A stretch of DNA of 64,000 nt from a virus (Duplodnaviria > Heunggongvirae > Uroviricota > Caudoviricetes): IMG/VR virus record IMGVR_UViG_2513237251_000009. One strand, written 5' to 3'. Made by a program: the position numbers and the translations under genes. The first letter of the stretch is position 1. Each line of letters begins with the position of its first letter. Positions 3,893 to 54,657 of the stretch are shown here, in pieces. Under the pieces are notes generated by a model that was not told where the DNA came from, searched no databases, and worked only from the letters and a program-made list of their open reading frames with translations.

Positions 3893-3920
3893 AAAAAACC
3901 GGAGCCGGACTCCGGTTTTT
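3893..3920. terminator. Bidirectional intrinsic terminator separating tail module from NleG cargo
   Basis: A-run, ccggag/ctccgg hairpin, T-run; same element recurs near 53748..53776 and 54616..54644. Confidence 0.5.
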
Positions 3921-3933
3921 GTGAAGCTGTCGG

Positions 3934-4203
3934 CTATTTCATCCCGCCAATATTTTCCCACGTCCCGTCAGCACGCAGGATTTGCAGCGGTCTTACCACA
4001 CACTGTATCTGCTTTTTATCCGCATCCAGTATCACCACCTGCGTGATTACCCTGTCCTGCTCCGGGATAATACCATTCTCATCGGACTCCAGAATGTCTG
4101 CCGGTCCCAGTCGCAGCTGTGCTGTAAGTAACTCCCCGTTTTCACGGTCATCATGCTTTCCGCAACCGCACAGACGCTGCATAATTTTTTTTAATATGTT
4201 CAT
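3934..4203 (-). CDS. Hypothetical 89-aa protein downstream of side tail fibre
   Basis: ORF with SD aggag before ATG 4203; identical copy at 54658..54927; no recognised domain. Confidence 0.45.
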   Translation of the reverse strand: MNILKKIMQRLCGCGKHDDRENGELLTAQLRLGPADILESDENGIIPEQDRVITQVVILDADKKQIQCVVRPLQILRADGTWENIGGMK

Positions 4204-4204
4204 G

Positions 4205-5432
4205 TCATTCTCCTGTTCTGCCTGTATCACTGCCCACTTCATCCAGCCCCTTAACATCCTGCCACGGCCCGTCACCAAACCTGACCTGCAAATGCTGAAA
4301 AAAACCCTGAACCCGTGTGGCATCTTTGGGGTCAAGAAAGGTCAGTCCGGTGATGAGTGCGCCATCTGTATCCGGGAACCAGCCATGGCTGTTTGTCTCA
4401 ATAATGTTTCCCGGCCCCAGACGGAACCGTATTTGCGTCTCCCCCGGGTCGCCCTTCGGCCCCTGAGGTCCGGTTGCCCCCACCGGGCCAGCCGCACCTG
4501 TTTCTCCTTTCGGTCCCTGTGGGCCTGCCGGGCCTGCCGGGCCTGCCGGACCAGCATCACCTGCCGGCCCCCTTTCACCGGTTGCCCCTGCCGGACCGGT
4601 GTCTCCACGCTCTCCTTTATCTCCCTTCGGCCCCTGAGGACCCGCGGGACCCGGTTCCCCCTTTGGCCGGGAGGCCCACCACCGTGGGGATTCGGTTTAC
4701 GGCCTCTTCCGCCGCTATCCTGCTTTGTTCCCGCTGACTGTGCGCTTTCTGCTGACTCCCGGGCTTTTTCTGTTGCGGTCGTTGCATCCTGGCTGCATTA
4801 CCGGCTGCACTTTCTGCCGTCTTTTTTGACAACTCAGCATCTGCTGCACTTTGTGATGACTCACTGGCTTTTTGAGCGGCCGCAGAGGCCGAGGACGAGG
4901 ACGCCTCCTCTGACTGCTTTGCAGCGGCTGCACTTTCTGCCGCCTGCCGGGCTGACTCCGATGCATCCCCTGCTGAAGTGTCAGCATTTGCCGCGCTCTC
5001 TTCTGCCTGACTGGCTGATATGCCGGCATTCCTCGCGGACGTCTCCGCCTCTCCGGCATTCTTCTTCGCCTCCTCAGCGTGACGCGCCGCTTCTTCCACC
5101 ATCAGTTCAAAACGACGCAGTGCCTCCGGCCGGACGTCATCCTCCGACATGGCACCGAGAAAATCATTCAGCGTCCCCGGTTGAGAATCTTCATACACGG
5201 TGATGGTCCCGGCATGTGACGGCGGGAACCCTTCCACCAACAGAATAACGCTGTACTGACCGTACTCAACGTCCATGCTGTAACGACCGGCTTCATCCGG
5301 ATTTTCAGAGGCCACCGTGTTCACCACCACCGTGGCGCTGTTACGTCTGGCTTTCAGTTGAATGGTGCAGTTCTCTACCGGTTTTCCTGTGCCGTCTTTC
5401 AGTACACCTGAAATCTTTACTGCCATATTCAC
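4205..5432 (-). pseudogene. Side tail fibre with collagen-like Gly-X-Y repeats, disrupted by frameshifts
   Basis: Split into 4617..5432 and 4205..4483; intact 409-aa paralogue at 54929..56158; differences are single-base indels in C/G runs around 4660..4800. Confidence 0.65.
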
Positions 5433-5490
5433 CCCACAAAAAAGCCCGCCTGAACCGGCGGGCTGTCATAACACTGTGTTACCTGGCTAA

Positions 5491-6090
5491 TCAGAACTTA
5501 TAACCGACACCCACGATGAAACCGTCAGTGCGCCAGTCGCCACTGCCGGAGCCTTCATAAGCAATATCAATGGCCACGGATTCGGTCGGGTTAAACTGCA
5601 CGCCAGCCCCCCACGCCAGAGACGTGTTGCTGTGGCGACCGTCATCACTTCCGGTCAGCACATCGTGCGTTTTCCCCTTGTTGTCAGTTACGCGAAGATA
5701 ATCCCCGGAGAAAGTCGACACACGGCTGTAAGCCACACCCGCCATCGCATACGCGCTGAACCATTCATTCACGCGCACAGACGGCCCCGCCATTACGCTG
5801 AACCAGCGGTTACGCACGGAATCTTCATGCCAGCGGGTATCGCTGTAACGGGTAAGCTGGCGATTCTTGTCTCCTGCATAGCTGAATGACGTCACCAGCC
5901 CCAGCGTGTCCGTAAATTCATAACGGTATTTCACGTTAATCCCGTTAAGATTATCGCTACCGGGAGCGCTCGTCCGGGCATGAAGATACCCCGCGCTCAG
6001 CGTGGCCTGCTGCTCAGACGCCCATGCAGGCGCGCCGGATACGGCCAGACAGATGGCTGCGGACAAAATGGCGGCATAAAGTTTACGCAT
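5491..6090 (-). CDS. lom: Lom/Ail-family outer membrane protein
   Basis: 199 aa, signal peptide, beta-barrel-like C-terminus ending GYKF; position after J as in lambda. Confidence 0.85.
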
Positions 6091-6157
6091 AATTACCTCT
6101 CGCTTTTCTGCAATAAAAAAGGCGCCATTTCTGGCGCCCGTATATGGGTTATAAAAT

Positions 6158-9100
6158 TCAGCTGATACTGATACCTGCTGTGGATTTTTTCATCACCACA
6201 ACCAGCAGATCGCTGATACTGGTTGTTGGTGTCCAGTTATTCGCTCCTGATGAAGATACGGTGAATGTCAGTGTCAGCGTCCCCTGTCCGGCAGGCATAT
6301 CTATAACTGAGGAAAATACGCCCTGAGCATCCGTCGTGGACTGATTAAAAATCTCCTGACCATTGCGGGTCACTCTTAACCGGCAGGTTGAATACCAGTA
6401 TGACTGTTGGTTATTACTGTTGAAATTCTCATGCTTACCACCGCGGAATAACACTGGCGGTATCATGACCTGCCGGTCAAACTTCTGATCATCACTGATT
6501 CTTACCGTGATGGTGCCACTGGCATAAGTGCTCGTGCGGGGGAAAGACTTGCTGACCGTTTTGACAATATCGCCTTCAATCTGGTTGGCTGACAGTTTCC
6601 CCTTAATCTGACAGTTCTCATTAATCGTGACGTTGTTGAGCGTCCCTGAGTTCGCATTCACACTGCCACTGATATCCGCATTTTTCGCCGTCAGTCGCCC
6701 GTCCGGCGTCAGGGAAAACGTCGGGGGATTGCCGGACGAGGTGATACTCACCGCAAACAGTCGCTTCAGGAACACGTCGTTCATGAACAGCTGATTCCCC
6801 TGCGCCACAAATAACGGCGTGCTGTTGCCGCTCTCCGGATTTATCATCGCGATACGGTCAGCCAGCAGCAGTATGTTGCTCAGTGGCTGGCCATCAGTAT
6901 CCTCAATCCCTGCACCAATCCCGGCCACATAGGGAATGCCGTCTTTCGTTTTTTGAACCTTCAGCATGTACAGCGCAGCCAGGTCATCATTTGTGTCCTT
7001 CTGCACGCGCTGTATCTGCTGTATAGTGGCGCTCTGGTTCTCCAGCGTTTTACTGACCGTCTGTGTGATTTCATTGCGGGTTTCCGTGATGGTGGTCTTC
7101 ATCTCCGCCATCTCATCCGCAAGCTGGCTGTTGTCTATCAGCTCCCATAGCCCCTGAGCCAGATGCAGTTTTCCTATTTTTTCCCGGAAAAATTCCAGAT
7201 ACCCTTCACCATCATTGCTGGGCTGCCCGCTGACTTCCACAAACGCAGATTTCCCCACCAGGTTGACGCTGCGCACGTAAAACCAGAAATCCGTCCCCGG
7301 CTTAATCCGGCTTCCCTGGACAGTCCACTGACTGCCGCTCCCCAGATAACGGGCAGATTTTTCCACCTGTGCCGTGTTCGTGATGCGTTTTTCCGAAAAC
7401 CAGAACTCAAACTGCACCGTCGGGTCATACACCGCCAGCACCGGTACCGCCGTTATCTGAAAATACCCCGGCGTCAGTTCAATGGTGGCGGGTTTTGCTG
7501 GCGCGTTAATCCGGAAGGTGGTGATGGCCGGTTCCCCCTGCTGGCCATAACTGTTAATTGCCCTGACTGTCAGGGTGTATTCCCCGAGCGGCAGACCACT
7601 GAAACGATGCTCTGTATCCGCAGTGATGGCGGTGGTCACCAGACGGCTGTCCTGACCGCTTCCACTGGTCAGGCGCAGACTGAAGCGCACGCCCTTCACC
7701 ACCCGCGGCGTGTCCCATTTCGCCTGCGCCAGATACTGGCTGTCAGCTGCACTCACCTCCACCGTCAGGTGCTGCACTGCCGGAGGGATGACGCTGTTCA
7801 GGGTGCCGCTCTGGTCGCCGTCAAAGTGCGCCCCGTTATCCACGATGGCTTCTTTTTCCGGTACGTGCTGCACTGCCGTGATGGCAAAGGTGCCGTCCGT
7901 GTTTTCCCGGATGGAGACACAGCGGAACAGGCGACGACGCAGTGACGGCAGGGAGAGCCCCCACACACCGTATGTCTCCACGCCATCCGGCAGGGTGCTG
8001 ACCTGTATCCGGTCCGGCGCGGGGTGTGCAGTGATGGCCACGCTCACCGGCTTACCGCTGCCGTTAATCAGGTTCACCGTGGCGGCACCGGTCTCCGGCA
8101 GGGTCACCTCACGGTCCAGTGTCAGGGTGCGGCTGGCGGCATCGATGGACAGGATACGTCCGCCGGTCATGGTCCCGGCATAGTCGTTATCACAGATTTC
8201 AATAATGTCACCGGGTGTGTGACGCAGCCCCTGTGACCCGAGCGTGAAATCCACCGTCTGCGTTTCCAGCAGTCCGGTCTTTATCACCCACAGCCCGGCA
8301 CGGTGGGCCTGACCGCGACTGGTACAGCCGAACGCATCCATCTTCAGCAGGTTGCGCCCGTAGCGCAGTATGGCTTCCGGGTCTTCCACCAGTTCCGTGG
8401 AGGTCTGCCAGCCGTTCTGCGGGTCGGTGTAATTCACCTCCACCGCCGTGTGGCGGTCCTTCAGGGCGCTGAAGCTGTAGCGAAACCCCACGCCGTTATC
8501 ATCCACCACCACATCACTGTTGGTGTACGGCCACACCACATCCGACGGACTGTCCTGAACGAACGTCAGCGTCTGGCCGTTCCATACCGGCATACAGCGC
8601 ATCGCCGAGCAGAAATCACTGAGAACGTCCCACGCCTTACGCTGTTGTGACAGGTACGCATTAAAGGTCATCCGCGGCTCTGTGCCCCCGAAACCATCAG
8701 GGACCATCTGGTCGCAGTACTGCGCAATGGCATACAGCGCCCACTTGTCCACATCCGCCGCCCCCAGGCGTTTTCCCATGCCGTAGCGCGGGTGAGTCAG
8801 CATGTCCCACAGGCACCAGGCCGGGTTGTTGCTGTATGCCGGTTTCAGGCTGCCGTCCCAGATGCCGCTGTACGTGCGTTTTTCCGGGTCATAGTTTGAC
8901 GGCACCTGGATGATGCGACCGCGGATATGGTAGTTCACCGTCATCTGCTGACCGCCAAACTGCTCCGCATCCACCTGCAGCCCCACAATGGCCGTGTTCG
9001 GGTAGCACTGTTTCACATCGATGATTTCGGTGTATGACGACCACAGCGTTCTGTTCTGCAGCTGGTCCGTGGTGCTGTCCGCCGTCTCCCTGACCATCCG

Positions 9101-12234: not shown

Positions 12235-14843
12235 CGCCCGCTCCCCGATAACATACCGCCATCACGCAACTGCAGCCGGAGCTCATCCTGCGCCCCCTTG
12301 CGGGCCATGTCATACACCGCCTTCATCAGCTGCGGCCCCGCCTGTCCGTTGGTGCCGTCGTTCTGAATCACCACGTGATTGTTCTGATTAAAATTAATAC
12401 CTTCCGCCCGCCGCATCTGCGCCGGACTTCCGGCACCACCCACATAACCACCTTCCGCATAGCCGCGCATCAGACGGTAAAGATTCCCCACACCTATCCG
12501 GCTGGTTGCCTCTTTCGTGAAAACAAACTCCCCGCGGTGAACAATTCCCGCAGGCTCATATTTGCCGCCCGTCCCCGTAAATCCTCCGATCGCGAAATGG
12601 AAGTTCGCCGCCGCAGCCTGAATGGCCGTCCCCGAGGAAGCAGATGCACCACCACCGAAAGCACCGCCAATGGCGCTGCCGATACGCCCGACAATGCCCA
12701 CCATGGCCTGTTTAAGCAGGATTTCTGTCATCATGGACAGCACCGAACGGGTGAATCCCCGCCAGTCTGCCTCTGCACCGGTCAGCATCGCCGCCATATT
12801 CTGTGCAATACCGTCAAAGGTCTGCGTGGCAGCACTTTTAACCTGCGAAAAACTGTCCGTCGCACTTTCCGCCCACTCGCCCCAGCCGGACTTCAGCCCG
12901 GCCATCCAGCTTCCACGAAGCTGCTCCTCCGCAGACCTGGTGTTCTTCAGTGCCGATGTGGCCTTCGCCAGCGCAGCCGGATTATCACCGTACACGTCCC
13001 GAAGACGCTGCGCTTCAGACTCCCGCTGCGCCTGACGGTCAGTGAGACCGCGGGCTTTTGCGCTGATGGCGGCCTGCTTCGCGCTCTGCTGCTCTTCAAA
13101 CCGCACCGCCTGCTGTGCCAGCTCATTCAGGCGTTTCTGGTATTCAACCTTGTCGCCCAGCTCAGCCAGCTGGCGTTTGTACTCCAGCGTCTCGTCTTTA
13201 TGCGCCAGCAGGGATTTTTCCTGCTCAGATAACTGTCGTTTCGTGGCAGCCTCTTTCAGGACCGCATACTGACTTTCCGCCTTCCATAAATCACGGCGCT
13301 GCCGGCTGATTTTCTCATTCGCACCGCTGTGTTTTTCCAGCGTCCTGAGCTCAGCTTCAAGGGCAAGCAGAGCCTCTCTTGCCTGCTCCTCTTCCCTCTC
13401 CCCGGCAGAGCGCGTTTTCGGTGATGTATGCTTTTTACCTGTCAGCTCTTCAGCCAGACGGCTGACGGCTTCCTGCTGCCCCGGACCTTTGCTGACGCCT
13501 GTTGCACGCGAGCGGTTGATGTACCCCATTTCCCCCTGGCGTATACGCGCATCCCGTTCCGCAATGGATTTTCTCAGCGCCAGTTCATCGCGTTTTGTTT
13601 TCTCAATAAATACGCGGTTCTCTTCTGCCAGTTCACCAAACAACGCACCAACGCCGGGCACATTCTTTGTCGTTTCCCAGGCTGACTGAATAAATTCAGC
13701 CAGCGCCAGATCCCCCTGCACAAGCAGCAGCTTCACTTGTTCAACGGTTCCGGCCACCACGTCAGTGATCAGACTGAGTGCCCCCAGTGTATGATCACCT
13801 ATCCATGCCCATGCGTCAGAAGTCCAGGTTTTAACATCGTCCCAGATTTTTTCCACCGGCGTGGCCGCTTTATCAAGTTGCTCCAGACGTGCATTCATGA
13901 CATCCGCAAACAGGGACATCGCCTCCGTCACCGCAACCTGTTTACCTTTCGTGCGCTCAAGCTCATCAATATGGCGTAACTGGGAAACGCTCAGGAAGTT
14001 ATACTGCTGATTCAGGGAGGCCAGCGCCTTCACCGGATCTGCTGCAATCCCTTCAAAGGCTTTTTCCACCTTCCCGGCATCGTCCCCCACCGTCTGCAGC
14101 CATCTCTGAGAGGTTTCCCCCATGATCCGTAGCTGCCCGGCGGTATATTTCCCGCTTTCTGCCAGACGGGCCAGATTTTCTGCCGCCTGTCTGATACCAC
14201 CACCGGCTTCATCGCTGATCACCCCGGCCATTTTCCACAATTCTGCCGTTGTGGTGGCAGCCGCCCCTCCGGTCAGGATCAGTGAACGCAATAAGGCCCG
14301 GTCAGCCTGCTCTGCCTGCCAGGCGGCGGCAGCAAGCGCGGCCAGTACGGCAACCCCGCCACCTGCCGCCACACGGGCCACCGACATAAATCGTCCCAGC
14401 TCACCGGCATTCCGGGCATTTTCAGCCAGTGCATTTGCCGTATCTGACAGCGACTCCTCTGATGATTCAGAGGCATCCCTGATCCCGAGAAGTTCCTCCT
14501 TCAGCAGGGTAAGCAGGCTGAGCGGTCCACCGAATGAATCGCTGATCTGCCCCCCCTGCTGCAGCATGATAAGGAAGGGATTCTGACCACCGGCAAGCTG
14601 AGTGACAATATCCGTGAACTGTGCGGGCAGTGTGCGCATGGCAGCCTTATACTGTCCGACTGATATCCCGGCTTTTTGTGCCGCCAGCGCCTGTCGGCTC
14701 AGCCCCTGTTCAACAGTACTGGCGGTTTTTCTGGCATCCGCCTCCAGACTGGAAAAATGACGGCGTACCCGGGCCATCTGTTCATCAAACCGGGCCGCAT
14801 CCAGACTCAAATCAATAACCAGATCACCCGCTGGCTGGGACAT
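12231..14843 (-). CDS. H: Tail tape measure protein H
   Basis: 870 aa, coiled-coil/Ala-rich, lambda gpH-like order and size. Confidence 0.85.
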   Translation of the reverse strand: MSQPAGDLVIDLSLDAARFDEQMARVRRHFSSLEADARKTASTVEQGLSRQALAAQKAGISVGQYKAAMRTLPAQFTDIVTQLAGGQNPFLIMLQQGGQISDSFGGPLSLLTLLKEELLGIRDASESSEESLSDTANALAENARNAGELGRFMSVARVAAGGGVAVLAALAAAAWQAEQADRALLRSLILTGGAAATTTAELWKMAGVISDEAGGGIRQAAENLARLAESGKYTAGQLRIMGETSQRWLQTVGDDAGKVEKAFEGIAADPVKALASLNQQYNFLSVSQLRHIDELERTKGKQVAVTEAMSLFADVMNARLEQLDKAATPVEKIWDDVKTWTSDAWAWIGDHTLGALSLITDVVAGTVEQVKLLLVQGDLALAEFIQSAWETTKNVPGVGALFGELAEENRVFIEKTKRDELALRKSIAERDARIRQGEMGYINRSRATGVSKGPGQQEAVSRLAEELTGKKHTSPKTRSAGEREEEQAREALLALEAELRTLEKHSGANEKISRQRRDLWKAESQYAVLKEAATKRQLSEQEKSLLAHKDETLEYKRQLAELGDKVEYQKRLNELAQQAVRFEEQQSAKQAAISAKARGLTDRQAQRESEAQRLRDVYGDNPAALAKATSALKNTRSAEEQLRGSWMAGLKSGWGEWAESATDSFSQVKSAATQTFDGIAQNMAAMLTGAEADWRGFTRSVLSMMTEILLKQAMVGIVGRIGSAIGGAFGGGASASSGTAIQAAAANFHFAIGGFTGTGGKYEPAGIVHRGEFVFTKEATSRIGVGNLYRLMRGYAEGGYVGGAGSPAQMRRAEGINFNQNNHVVIQNDGTNGQAGPQLMKAVYDMARKGAQDELRLQLRDGGMLSGSGR

Positions 14844-25560: not shown

Positions 25561-25785
25561 ATGTCATCAAAGAACAGAACCCGCAGAACAACAACCCGCA
25601 ACATCCGATTTCCAAACCAGATGATTGAACAAATTAACATCGCTCTTGATCTGAAAGGTTCAGGAAATTTTTCAGCGTGGGTTATTGAAGCCTGCAGAAG
25701 AAGATTAATTAATGAAAAATATTCTCAATTTGTACCCAACAAAGACAAACACGACCAGAGCACCTGTTCAGACAGGTTTACTTAA
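25561..25785 (+). CDS. Putative ribbon-helix-helix (CopG/Arc-like) DNA-binding protein
   Basis: 74 aa; basic N-terminus then RNIRFPNQMIEQINIALDLKG... typical of RHH fold; call by pattern only. Confidence 0.4.
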   Translation: MSSKNRTRRTTTRNIRFPNQMIEQINIALDLKGSGNFSAWVIEACRRRLINEKYSQFVPNKDKHDQSTCSDRFT

Positions 25786-27260: not shown

Positions 27261-27830
27261 TCAATCCGCCTTTGTTATTTTCCCTTTGCCTGTATCAGCC
27301 AGGACAAAATCAATCAGCATATTCGCTTCATTTACCAGCGTACGGATTTTTGATACATGCGCGGCTTTAACCTGTTTCCACTCATTCAGCCCGGTAGCAA
27401 ACACACTGGCAATGTTTTTATCCCGTTTCATGTCAGCACAAGCCTGGTTGAGTTCTTCCATCACGCTCATTTTACGGGGATTAACGACAAAACCCTTCGT
27501 CCAGTACTCGTAAAGAACATCGTCGCACTCTTCCTGATACCGGATGACCTTATCGCGGATTTCGGGTTTTACTTTGTTGGGATTAATGGTTTGTAGCCAG
27601 CCGGCAAGTTTTCGAAGTGGCATGGACACCATATTGCGTTGGTTCCCATCCTCAGCAACCATAACGATTTCCGTTATAGTTGACGCAAAACGCTGTCTTA
27701 ACTTAGCCAACTGTGATTGCCAGGCCAGCCCCATCCCCGCAACGACAGGTTTCATGGGAACGTATGGTTCGCCATTATGGTTAACTACATAAAGAGAGTT
27801 GCCGTGAAACGGCACGGCCATCATATTCAT
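27261..27830 (-). CDS. Putative anti-repressor (Ant-like) inserted between R and Rz
   Basis: 189 aa; recalled resemblance to phage antirepressor family; not verified. Confidence 0.4.
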   Translation of the reverse strand: MNMMAVPFHGNSLYVVNHNGEPYVPMKPVVAGMGLAWQSQLAKLRQRFASTITEIVMVAEDGNQRNMVSMPLRKLAGWLQTINPNKVKPEIRDKVIRYQEECDDVLYEYWTKGFVVNPRKMSVMEELNQACADMKRDKNIASVFATGLNEWKQVKAAHVSKIRTLVNEANMLIDFVLADTGKGKITKAD

Positions 27831-28100: not shown

Positions 28101-28634
28101 TTATCTGTCGATTCCCCAGCACGCCAGCGCGCTCTCCTGGTCACGACGGGATACCTGACCGTAACAGTTATTTGAGCGAATACGGCAGTCCCTGCCACCG
28201 TCCTTAATCCACCAGCGAATCGCTTCGCAGGCACCTTTTCGATCTCCTGCATTAATCCGTCTGTAAAACGTCGACGGGAAACACTTACCGGGGCCAATGT
28301 TGTACGGACAGAATGACGCAATCCCCGCTTTCTGGGGTTCGGTCAGTGGCACTCTGATGTTTTTCTCCACCCATGCCAGCGCCTTATCACGCTCAATGGC
28401 GTTAACCCGGTCGCATTTTTCCTTCGACAGCTTCATGCCAGGAATAACAGGCTTACCATCCACCCGGGTGGCTCCACGGCAGATGGTCCAGATACCCGCA
28501 CCATCACGGTATGCTGTGGTGTGGTTACCTTCCTTTTCATCCAGAAACTGGTCGAGGATTTCAGGCGCAGACGCCCCTGCACCAATCAGCGCCAGAACGG
28601 CAGCCGACAGGCCGTATCTGATTTTTGCGTTCAT
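28101..28634 (-). CDS. R: SAR-endolysin (lysozyme R)
   Basis: 177 aa; Gly/Ala-rich N-terminal signal-anchor-release segment then lysozyme-like region resembling P1 Lyz/phage 21 R. Confidence 0.85.
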   Translation of the reverse strand: MNAKIRYGLSAAVLALIGAGASAPEILDQFLDEKEGNHTTAYRDGAGIWTICRGATRVDGKPVIPGMKLSKEKCDRVNAIERDKALAWVEKNIRVPLTEPQKAGIASFCPYNIGPGKCFPSTFYRRINAGDRKGACEAIRWWIKDGGRDCRIRSNNCYGQVSRRDQESALACWGIDR

Positions 28635-29730: not shown

Positions 29731-31539
29731 TCAAACGCCATACGCTGCATTTTTTGTAACATCCGTCAGCGTCAGCGCATTCAGTCCCAGTGTCAGACTG
29801 TCTTTTATAACCTGGAATGCCGGGCCAGCCACTCCATTCAGTTTCGGAGTAACCGTGGCACTGCCGGCGGTGAACACCAGCTCCAGCGTCTGCCAGTCGT
29901 TACCGTAATCGCCGAACTCCCCCAGCTTCGTGTTTCCGGCTTTCCTGTGATGCATCAGATTCACTCTGCCGTCAGTGGTCTGAGTGAAGTACGACATCAG
30001 GAACGGATTACCGGTACCCGTCATCGCCACACCATCAGGAACGGGAGCGTCCGTATACAGATAAATCCCCAGCCCGAACTGATTGTTGGTCAGTGCGCCT
30101 GACAGGCGGAACTTACAGGTCAGTCTGCCGCCCTGTGTCAGCAGGGTAATTGCGTCATCCACCGGATGCGTCAGGGACCAGGTTTTATTGCTCTGCCTGG
30201 TGATCTTAAATACACCATCTGACAACTGAATTCCGCCATCCTTAATGCTCCAGCCCTGCGCAGCAGCCTCTCCGGCTGCCGGCAGCAGGGAGATTGTGCG
30301 AACGGACGTATCTGCAGACGGACCCGATGGCGTGTTGCCGCCGGGCGAGGGTTTGATTTCCGGTGCCTTACCACTGATGAAGGCTGAGGTGCGCCCGGCT
30401 GCGTTCAGAATAGCGGTTGCCAGACGATCCGGAATAATGCTCCTGCGCGCCCATGAACTGAAATGTGTCGGGCGGTTTGATGATACCTGGTTTCCATTCG
30501 TTCTCGATGCCGCACCGTAATATCCTGATGCCGGAATATCCGGATCTTCTGCCGGCGCGTTAGTGGCGGTATTGACGCCGTTACCGTCTGTCATGAAGGG
30601 CACAAAATAAACGCCCTCACTCTCCCTGTTTTTATACCCGCCGTACACGGTGTCGTACTGGGTAGCGTATGTATTTTTCCAGTAATACGTCGTGTCACCA
30701 CAAATCCACGGCACATCTGCAGCACTGCCACCATGGCACTGCGCGTTAAACACGGAGAGGTCAGCACGAAACTGTGTCAGCATGGCTGTAAACAGCGCAG
30801 GTTGCTGTGCGTGGGTGGCGGCGCTCATGTCAAACTCTCCCTGCATCCAGCACACCGCCAGCAACACATTTTTCGGGTTCTTCTGTAATGCAGCTTTGGT
30901 GCGCGCAATCAGGTCCTGATATAACGGTTTACCCACACCCCAGCGCGCCGAATCCTGGCTGGCCCCCGTGGACTCGCTGAATATCCCCTCCGCGCCCTGG
31001 GTAAATGCCGAACCACCACGACAGCATGGTACCAGCAGGATCCCCGCGTTATTCGGGATATACGGGAGCAGTTTTTTGGCAATATGTAACCCCTGGCCGA
31101 CACAGCCGTACTGCCCTTTGCTCAGGTCTGCCTTCGGATGATTCAGCGTACTCATATCCTGCACATCATGCAGGCAGTGGTCGGCCGGAATAATATCGTT
31201 ATATCTGCAGGCAGCCCCACCCGGCGTCACTGTACTGCGGCGCGCCAGCTGTTTAATGCGCGGATCCGGAGCATCGTATGAATCCGGCAGCGGAAGCCCT
31301 TCACCGTAAGCCATGGCATTGGACTGCCCGGCCAGTACGATGACGTAGTACCAATCCGGCTCAGTTGCACCACTGACCACCACATCACCTTCTGCTGTAA
31401 TCGCCTGCATCAGGGTATAAGGGGTTATGGCCACCGGACTACCAAACGGCTGCCAGCCCTCTTTCAGTTTGTGTGTCAGCTTTTCCGCAAGGTCTGACGG
31501 CGACGCCGCCCTGACAACATCATAATGTTTAATCGACAT
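29731..31539 (-). CDS. nanS: Prophage NanS-p-type sialate O-acetylesterase (DUF1737 plus SGNH hydrolase)
   Basis: 602 aa; N-terminal DUF1737-like segment, GQSN block of SGNH esterases; sits upstream of S as yjhS/nanS-p does in Stx phages. Confidence 0.75.
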   Translation of the reverse strand: MSIKHYDVVRAASPSDLAEKLTHKLKEGWQPFGSPVAITPYTLMQAITAEGDVVVSGATEPDWYYVIVLAGQSNAMAYGEGLPLPDSYDAPDPRIKQLARRSTVTPGGAACRYNDIIPADHCLHDVQDMSTLNHPKADLSKGQYGCVGQGLHIAKKLLPYIPNNAGILLVPCCRGGSAFTQGAEGIFSESTGASQDSARWGVGKPLYQDLIARTKAALQKNPKNVLLAVCWMQGEFDMSAATHAQQPALFTAMLTQFRADLSVFNAQCHGGSAADVPWICGDTTYYWKNTYATQYDTVYGGYKNRESEGVYFVPFMTDGNGVNTATNAPAEDPDIPASGYYGAASRTNGNQVSSNRPTHFSSWARRSIIPDRLATAILNAAGRTSAFISGKAPEIKPSPGGNTPSGPSADTSVRTISLLPAAGEAAAQGWSIKDGGIQLSDGVFKITRQSNKTWSLTHPVDDAITLLTQGGRLTCKFRLSGALTNNQFGLGIYLYTDAPVPDGVAMTGTGNPFLMSYFTQTTDGRVNLMHHRKAGNTKLGEFGDYGNDWQTLELVFTAGSATVTPKLNGVAGPAFQVIKDSLTLGLNALTLTDVTKNAAYGV

Positions 31540-47337: not shown

Positions 47338-47379
47338 TGAACCGCCCCGGTTTTCCTGGAGAGTGTTTTATCTGTGAAC

Positions 47380-48270
47380 TCAGGCTGCCAGATCATCGTT
47401 TCCGATGGAAGCATAATAAGCTTTTTCTGCTTCTGCCGGAGGAGTATGGCCCAGCCTTCCCAGCAATCGTCGATTGTTATACCAGTCCACCCACGTTAGT
47501 GTGGCCAGTTCCACTTCTGCACGGTTTTTCCAGCTCTTACGGTGTATTACCTCCGCTTTGTAAAGACCATTGATGCTCTCAGCCATCGCGTTGTCATACG
47601 AGTCGCCTGTACTCCCTGTTGATGCCAGTAATCCGGCTTCTTTTAGTCGCTCCGTATAGGCCAGTGACACATACTGAGAGCCTTTATCGCTGTGATGGAT
47701 GGTGCCAGACGGACGACGGGCCCACAACGCCTGCTCCAGCGCATCCAGCACGAATGTCGTTTCCATAGACGATGAGACCCGCCACCCCACGATGTATCCG
47801 GCAAACACATCAATGATAAACGCCACATAGACGAAGCCCTGCCATGTGCTGACGTAAGTAAAATCAGCCACCCACAGCTGGTCAGGTCGTTCTGCCACGA
47901 ACTGACGGTTTACGCGGTCGCCTGCGGCAACGGCTTTCCGGCTGATGGTCGTACGGACCTTTTTACCCCGGAGAACACCGGCAAGTCCCATAACCGCCAT
48001 GAGACGTGCCACTGTACATCTGGCCACCCTGATTCCTTCCCGTAACAACTGACGCCAGACTTTACGCACACCGTACACCTGATGATTTTCATCGTATACG
48101 CGCTGTATCTCTCTCTTCAGCCAGTCGTCGTGCTGCGCACGGGCACTGCGTTTATCCGGATGATGTCGCTGTTGCTGACAATGGTAATACGTTGACGGGG
48201 CAATATGCAGTTCGCTGCATACCGGTCCGACCCCGTACTGCTCACGCAGCTTATCCAGCAGTGGCATCAT
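47380..48270 (-). CDS. IS629 transposase OrfB (DDE integrase domain)
   Basis: 296-aa IS3-family orfB. Confidence 0.85.
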
Positions 48271-48593
48271 TTTTTCCAGAGGCGGTCGAACTCCGCCTTC
48301 GCAAAATAAGCGGAAGCCTGGCGAAGGATATCGTTACTGCGGCGCAGTTCACGATTTTCACGTTCCAGCTCTTTCAGACGCTGACGTTCAGCGCTGGTGA
48401 GCCCACCATCACCGCCCCCGGTATCCCGCTCATGCTGGCGAACCCAGACACGCAGAGTCTCCGGCGTACAGCCAATCTTTGGGGCAATGGAACAAATTGC
48501 CGCCCACTGTGAGTCATATTCATCCTGACTTTCCAGAACCATACGAATCGCCCGCTGACGGACTTCGGGGGAAAAACGAGTATTTTTAGTCAT
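48267..48593 (-). CDS. IS629 OrfA (HTH)
   Basis: 108-aa IS3-family orfA, overlaps orfB. Confidence 0.85.
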
Positions 48594-48799
48594 CCTGTTT
48601 ACCTCTTTCTCAGGGAGTTTAGTCTCCAGGATTTCCGGGGCGGTTCACCTTTCAGTTACTCGCACCGCCGATAAAGATTCTGCAAAAACTTTTGTTCAGG
48701 AGACGCTGAAAGATACCTGGGAGTCTGCTGACGAGTGGTTTGTTCGCTAATTAACGAGTAAAATCGACCCTGTACACGATTCTGTGTAAATGCCTTTTC

Positions 48800-54545: not shown

Positions 54546-54657
54546 ACAAAACTCCCTATTTAAATATTCATTCCAAACACAGGGAGTCATAACAAACAGC
54601 CCCCATACATGACAACAAAAACCGGAGCCGGACTCCGGTTTTTGTGAAGCTGTCGGG

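Follow-up and report, generated by a model that had tools for sequence, protein, structure and literature searches.

Four single-base length changes split the Sp11 collagen-like side tail fibre gene in the Escherichia coli O157:H7 Sakai reference sequence

What has happened to a collagen-like side tail fibre gene that is written as broken in one prophage and as intact in the prophage next to it? The first-pass annotation of the window, by which we mean the whole stretch of 64,000 nucleotides that was analysed, had put forward decay, homopolymer sequencing error, and slipped-strand switching of fibre expression. A sequence match identified the window as part of the chromosome of E. coli O157:H7 str. 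Sakai, with position 1 of the window at NC_002695.2 position 2157035. Prophage A of the annotation, which has the broken gene, is Sp11, inserted at ydfJ. Prophage B, which has the intact gene, is its tandem neighbour Sp12.

The window is not identical to NC_002695.2, the revised RefSeq/DDBJ record that is equivalent to BA000007.3. The two differ at nine positions, all within Sp11: there are substitutions at 12543, 12546, 12589, 15907, 25761, 26634, 27642, and 28462, and the window has an extra A (a 1-base insertion in an A run) at 29733. At each of the nine, the NC_002695.2 base is that of EDL933, AR-0430, SRCC 1675, and Wll001. Most simply, this would mean that the window was taken from an older version of that entry, which we consider probable.

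The extra A at 29733 cuts the SASA-family esterase ECs_2189 (29731 to 31539, minus strand) from 616 to 602 aa, and the 602-aa form was absent from all complete E. coli genomes searched. A draft contig, LMXL01000073.1, has the short ECs_2189 form together with the window bases at 27642 and 28462, and it does not have those at 25761 and 26634. The tape-measure protein of the window, which spans the differences at 12543 to 12589, is present on contigs of other genomes, and the lysozyme variant of the window (28320/28347) is common in other genomes and in paralogues. As markers of the Sakai lineage, the tape-measure and major-tail proteins, which occur in many genomes, and this lysozyme, given its frequency in paralogues, were unsuitable.

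The fibre gene and its products

The Sp11 gene is annotated 3' of J and lom in the lambdoid tail module, which is the position of lambda stf. Judged by its sequence, it is an EPclA-type collagen-like side tail fibre gene of E. coli O157:H7 Sakai. The gene, the two ORFs into which it is split, the gene that follows it, and the Sp12 twin are as follows.

4205 to 5426, minus strand: Sp11 EPclA-type side tail fibre gene, frameshifted as written (ECs_2159 plus ECs_2158), identified by alignment, annotation, and Pfam (PF08400, Collagen, PF06820)
4617 to 5426, minus strand: ECs_2159, the ORF as written, 269 aa, with PfN, a coiled-coil segment that contains a 19-residue out-of-frame stretch, and an out-of-frame tail
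4205 to 4483, minus strand: ECs_2158, remnant ORF of 92 aa, annotated as a pseudogene, with PfC in the original frame (PF06820, E = 1.5e-36)
3934 to 4203, minus strand: ECs_2157, 89-aa gene 3' of the Sp11 fibre gene, intact in both prophages (PF06820, E = 5e-36)
54929 to 56152, minus strand: ECs_2231, the intact Sp12 twin, 407 aa

The Sp12 gene was correctly described as intact by the first-pass annotation, and its ORF encodes 409 aa if it starts at a GTG and 407 aa if it starts at the annotated ATG. ECs_2231 begins with PfN (PF08400, phage_tail_N, residues 1 to 133), followed by a coiled-coil segment (residues 134 to 249), a collagen domain (residues 251 to 331), and PfC (PF06820, Phage_fiber_C, residues 333 to 396). 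The PF08400 match at residues 1 to 133 has an E value of 2.9e-69 in the Sp11 copy and 7.5e-69 in the Sp12 copy. Residues 134 to 249 of the Sp12 protein (116 aa, with 38 Ala, 23 Ser, and 15 Glu) are of low complexity, and the segment is called a coiled coil by its composition. The collagen domain consists of 27 uninterrupted Gly-X-Y triplets (81 aa) and is matched by Pfam Collagen. In the Sp11 product as written this uninterrupted domain is absent, and it is present only after the four tract lengths described below have been restored. PfC is part of the same polypeptide in Sp12 and is found in Sp11 only as the separate remnant ORF at 4205 to 4483. Once the four lengths are restored, the Sp11 gene encodes the 407-aa protein WP_000268860.1. 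The 89-aa gene that follows each fibre gene (3934 to 4203 and 54658 to 54927, minus strand) is essentially a second copy of the fibre PfC.

The Sp11 gene therefore has a frameshift and premature stop in a fibre gene that has intact homologues, and its split state is already known. In RefSeq, ECs_2159 is a CDS of 269 aa and ECs_2158 is labelled a pseudogene; Ghosh et al. (2012, PLoS One, PMC3368898) listed ECs2159/ECs2158 as a defective EPclA and every other Sakai EPclA gene as intact. They also showed, for recombinant ECs2717, a trimer with a collagen triple helix (PMC3368898). The EPclA of that study (intact ECs2231, WP_000268860.1) has the same four-part architecture of PfN, 116-aa coiled coil, 81-aa collagen, and PfC and the same place after J and lom, and the restored Sp11 gene encodes exactly this protein. 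In contrast, the Sp11 copy as written lacks in-frame collagen and PfC parts.

Four length changes in short C runs

A BLAST alignment of window positions 3900 to 5500 with 54630 to 56230 gave 1592 identities in 1598 positions. The sole differences between the Sp11 and Sp12 fibre genes are four 1-base gaps in C runs of 2 to 4 bases. This is exactly the number of single-base indels that the first-pass annotation had counted by eye. In the order in which translation meets them, the sites are as follows.

4788 to 4789: site 4, the first met in translation; CC in Sp11 and CCC in Sp12 and every other copy examined; codon 213, in the coiled-coil segment; frame lost
4730 to 4732: site 3; CCC in Sp11 and CC elsewhere; codon 232, in the coiled-coil segment; frame regained
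4675 to 4677: site 2; CCC in Sp11 and CCCC elsewhere; codon 251, in the first Gly-X-Y triplet; frame lost again
4667 to 4668: site 1; CC in Sp11 and CCC elsewhere; codon 254, in the second Gly-X-Y triplet; frame stays out

The three deletions and one insertion give a net length change of -2. Translation of the Sp11 gene from the ATG at 5426 reproduces the Sp12 protein up to the residues GNAAR and then runs out of frame for 19 residues. After this excursion, it is in frame again for 19 letters of the protein and then out again up to a stop at 4617 to 4619. As written, the frame is thus lost at the first Gly-X-Y triplet, and the stop comes 18 codons later. The annotation had proposed that the frame goes out, back in, and out again, and the translation bears this out, with the losses and the regain at codons 213, 232, and 251 to 254.

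Two parts of the earlier description need narrowing. The changes had been placed within the collagen-like repeats, which holds for codons 251 and 254 in the first two Gly-X-Y triplets; however, the sites at codons 213 and 232 precede these repeats and belong to the Ala/Ser-rich coiled-coil segment. The changes had also been ascribed to homopolymer runs, and they are indeed in C runs, but these runs are only 2 to 4 bases long, and the longer runs of the gene (A7, four C5, T5, and T6) are identical in the Sp11 and Sp12 copies. Site 2 sits in the 5' arm of a 6-bp inverted repeat, CCCCAC/GTGGGG, and in the intact form site 1 falls inside a CCCGGG palindrome. GC compression was considered and rejected: when 41-base windows were folded as DNA on both strands, only site 2 was in a hairpin (6 bp), and no fold was better than those of shuffled sequences (z from -0.1 to -0.6).

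The four sites lie inside a much longer stretch in which the two prophages are the same.

4001 to 6172: stretch of 2.17 kb with the fibre gene, lom, and the 3' end of J; the four indels are its sole differences between Sp11 and Sp12

There is no substitution between Sp11 and Sp12 in this stretch, and the nearest bases that tell the two apart, 4000 and 6173, lie 668 bases left and 1,386 bases right of the indel sites. Because the stretch is identical but for the indels, short reads from it cannot be assigned to one copy. Outside the fibre gene, a G-run indel at 3932 to 3933 and the SNP at 4000 also separate Sp11 from Sp12, and these two differences are genuine because they are common to the orthologues. 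On a slightly wider scale, 3894 to 6172 is almost identical to 54618 to 56898, with 73% identity in the left flank, at nleG2-3, and about 87% in the upstream part of J. This near-identity suggests that the two tandem prophages recently recombined or underwent conversion here.

The four indels are also exceptional within the prophage. Over 32 kb, five indels separate the sequence from four related genomes, and four of them cluster in 120 bases (P of about 1e-6), so that the clustering is not due to chance. Compared with EDL933, the window differs in its first 12 kb at the four fibre sites and nowhere else, and the four fibre changes are the only indels in its first 28 kb. The remainder of the 47-kb prophage has 20 substitutions and 2 indels relative to EDL933.

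Tract lengths in other genomes

We examined the orthologous locus, defined by the same ydfJ junction and the same nleG genes, in nine other O157 genomes: EDL933 (CP008957), 20R2R, RIMD 0509939, Xuzhou21, 86-24, AR-0430, SRCC 1675, Wll001, and CP089270. All nine have the intact lengths at all four sites, and all nine orthologues encode WP_000268860.1. The fibre gene is intact even in SRCC 1675, Wll001, and AR-0430, which have an IS629 junction in common with Sakai and are its closest relatives in the set.

For a broader census, the 191-base stretch from 4630 to 4820 was compared with 5,426 complete E. coli genomes. It matched 5,519 places in 714 records (707 genomes), including eight places in Sakai itself. 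Only the Sakai record matched with at least 99% identity; the top-ranked of the other 713 records reached 97.9%, with exactly four gaps. No other census record had, in its best-matching copy, the Sakai-type length at even one site. Among the fetched loci, the intact length was found at each site in all of the 36 to 37 other copies, including diverged 437-aa alleles and IMG/VR prophage contigs, and the minority lengths occurred only jointly and only in Sakai-derived records. Inheritance of the lesion by related strains was thus not seen in the nine O157 orthologues or in the census of 707 genomes.

The protein and k-mer searches gave a similar picture. Only three contigs encode the truncated 269-aa product; the two that were identified are BA000007.3 and AOTB01000001.1. 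The sequence collection has index entries for the intact product in 336 blocks, and these include short de novo contigs. In IMG/VR, a Sakai-type 31-mer had 0 matches and the intact form had 17. In metagenome scans, Sakai-type and intact 31- to 33-mers both had 0 matches; the positive control failed there as well, and these scans therefore carry no information. In the sequence records, then, the four length changes are private to the Sakai reference lineage.

Other features of the region vary among the same strains. An IS629 (IS1203) copy at 47339 to 48647 lies in a dinI-like gene at the Sp11/Sp12 border, and the 4-bp overlap of the alignment blocks at its flanks is probably a target duplication. 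Among the 5,426 complete genomes, exactly this junction is common only to SRCC 1675, Wll001, and AR-0430. At the equivalent of about 54900 to 60500, AR-0430 has a 437-aa fibre, an intact J, and sodC instead of the Sakai arrangement, and close relatives have evidently swapped tail modules from one prophage to another.

The J genes are variable as well. The Sp12 J (56883 to 60357; ECs_2233, ECs_2234, and ECs_2235) is split into three ORFs in Sakai. The orthologous place is annotated as frameshifted in EDL933 and TB21-1, and this is a real pseudogene common to several strains, unlike the fibre indels. In Sp11, a patch of substitutions in J (8520 to 8561) is accompanied by a 1-base deletion at 8528 in RIMD 0509939, Xuzhou21, SRCC 1675, Wll001, and CP089270. 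The Sp11 J is annotated as frameshifted in these five strains and is intact in Sakai and EDL933.

Base-calling error, decay, and switching

We suggest that the four indels are probably uncorrected base-calling errors in the Sakai reference. This reading is favoured because the changes are private to one record lineage, consist of indels only, crowd into 120 bases, and are of both signs, deletions as well as an insertion. The differences thus have the hallmarks of an artefact, being confined to one record lineage, made up of indels clustered at the scale of a read, and located in a repeat that is hard to resolve. Four indels in 120 bases and no substitutions, inside 2.2 kb of identity between Sp11 and Sp12, likewise point to base calling. 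In this scenario, bases would have been miscounted where coverage of the original Sanger assembly was poor. Reads of an intact Sp11 copy would map perfectly to Sp12, no variant would be called at Sp11, and the error would never be corrected. The real Sp11 gene would then be intact and encode the same 407-aa protein as Sp12, and the tracts would be biologically inert. Errors in the Sakai and EDL933 reference sequences had been reported before (PMC2806823). The nine Sp11 positions that were later revised towards the other strains indicate that the underlying sequence was imperfect here.

The main competing explanation is that the damage is real: a very recent, private decay of the Sp11 fibre gene in the Sakai isolate or in the sequenced stock, perhaps in one event of error-prone repair. 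We regard this as a serious possibility that falls short of an even chance. The revised NC_002695.2 retains the four indels, though nine other Sp11 positions were changed there, and this persistence leaves decay with some of its probability. AOTB01000001.1, a second read-informed assembly, also has the four fibre indels, so that they were kept in both records although both altered other positions nearby. Sp11 has a disrupted integrase and a disrupted repressor and neither excises nor packages (PMC2669165), and nothing would therefore select for its fibre. There are also true frameshifts in neighbouring tail genes, namely in the Sp12 J of Sakai and EDL933 and in the Sp11 J of five other strains. 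However, these real frameshifts are each common to several strains, and the fibre lesion is common to none. Four independent 1-base indels in runs of 2 to 4 bases within 120 bases are far from what ordinary mutation would be expected to produce, the more so with zero substitutions in 2.17 kb and a lineage that is otherwise the same as EDL933 over 12 kb. Gene conversion offers no explanation either, because there is no donor copy with these lengths. A single burst of error-prone repair synthesis could leave the Sakai isolate with such a private "mutation shower" made up purely of frameshifts, for example if a frameshift-prone polymerase filled a gap at the GC-rich beginning of the collagen-like region once Sp11 and Sp12 had recombined, but we consider a burst of this kind unlikely. 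Decay and sequencing error, both named by the first-pass annotation, thus each keep some weight, and the private, indel-only, clustered pattern favours error.

The differences that AOTB01000001.1 has of its own are at the window equivalents of 10124, 10199, 10205, and 10985: at three of them the base has become C, and at one a G run has lost a base, which breaks the tail gene K. CP089270 has many paralogue-type substitutions as a block, of which this contig shows only three, and the contig coordinate is at most 11 kb off the reference coordinate over 2.15 Mb. The contig therefore looks like a reference-guided consensus that took in paralogue reads. A search for an independent assembly of Sakai itself found none among the candidates 20R2R, CP038292 (TB21-1), and AR-0430. 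We rejected 20R2R as a Sakai derivative, as it lacks the IS629 insertion at 47339 and its record describes a culture mutant from Pennsylvania. AR-0430 was rejected as Sakai: it has the IS629 site in common, but its Sp12 tail region is different.

The proposal of slipped-strand switching, in which the C tracts would change length often and toggle fibre expression as in a contingency locus, found no support in the comparison, and we give it almost no credence. All that speaks for it is the location of the differences in C runs and the loss, recovery, and second loss of the frame. Contingency loci need homopolymers of about 7 to 8 bases or longer for useful rates of slippage. The variable tracts here have 2 to 4 bases, the longest runs of the gene (A7, C5, and T6) never differ, and a switch would need simultaneous changes, of mixed sign, at four sites. 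Length polymorphism is also missing: no Sakai-type length occurs in the best-matching copy of the other complete genomes (707 genomes, 5,519 copies, and 714 records in the census), and all of the 36 to 37 other fetched copies are intact at each site, the minority lengths only ever being joint. A switch would moreover be placed in a prophage that can neither excise nor form particles (PMC2669165). Regulated switching at the fibre tracts is therefore not supported. Gene conversion by a fibre paralogue at another place in the genome, or a chimeric assembly with such a paralogue, is just as hard to credit. Sakai has eight places that match the stretch from 4630 to 4820, and other differences of the window do coincide with alleles found elsewhere (the tape-measure gene at 12543 to 12589 and the lysozyme at 28320/28347). 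Yet a paralogue would import substitutions, of which there are none, and these tract lengths are in no copy of any genome examined. The other EPclA genes of Sakai were all listed as intact by Ghosh et al. (PMC3368898). Programmed frameshifting was rejected as well, since there are four sites of mixed sign, there is no slippery heptamer conserved in the homologues, and the homologues are simply in frame.

Comparison with known systems leads to the same view of switching. Phages are known to switch host range by homopolymer slippage, by invertible fibre segments as in Mu and P1, and by a diversity-generating retroelement (DGR) as in the Bordetella phage. The Sp11 gene resembles contingency loci and fibre switches in one respect only: it is a receptor-binding fibre gene whose differences fall within mononucleotide runs. 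Unlike the contingency, inversion, and DGR switches, the Sp11 fibre has no long tract, no tract polymorphism, no invertase, no framing inverted repeats, and no template repeat.

Split genes of this type offer closer parallels. In the first EDL933 sequence, Z3309/Z3307 in CP-933V is a defective EPclA split into two ORFs (PMC3368898). Like the Sp11 gene, it is a split EPclA in a first-generation O157 reference, and it differs in the prophage and the strain. Lambda PaPa provides a second case: its stf, which is 3' of J and lom, was reportedly described by Hendrix and Duda in 1992 as split into two ORFs by a single-base frameshift, with a tail that is otherwise functional. That lesion is said to be one experimentally verified mutation with a phenotype. 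In contrast, the Sp11 gene has four changes in 120 bases, these are known from sequence records alone, and the prophage does not form particles.

The object is thus an ordinary and documented one, a split EPclA gene that belongs to a defective prophage in a reference genome of the 2001 era. It carries little biological weight, because Sp11 cannot excise or form particles and an identical intact fibre is present 50 kb away in Sp12. If the indels are real, they would form an unusually dense private cluster of frameshifts, which would be of interest for mutation and not for phage biology. The more general point is one of caution: a widely used reference genome may hold uncorrected single-base errors in near-identical prophage repeats, and such errors create apparent pseudogenes and inflate the counts of "defective" prophage genes.
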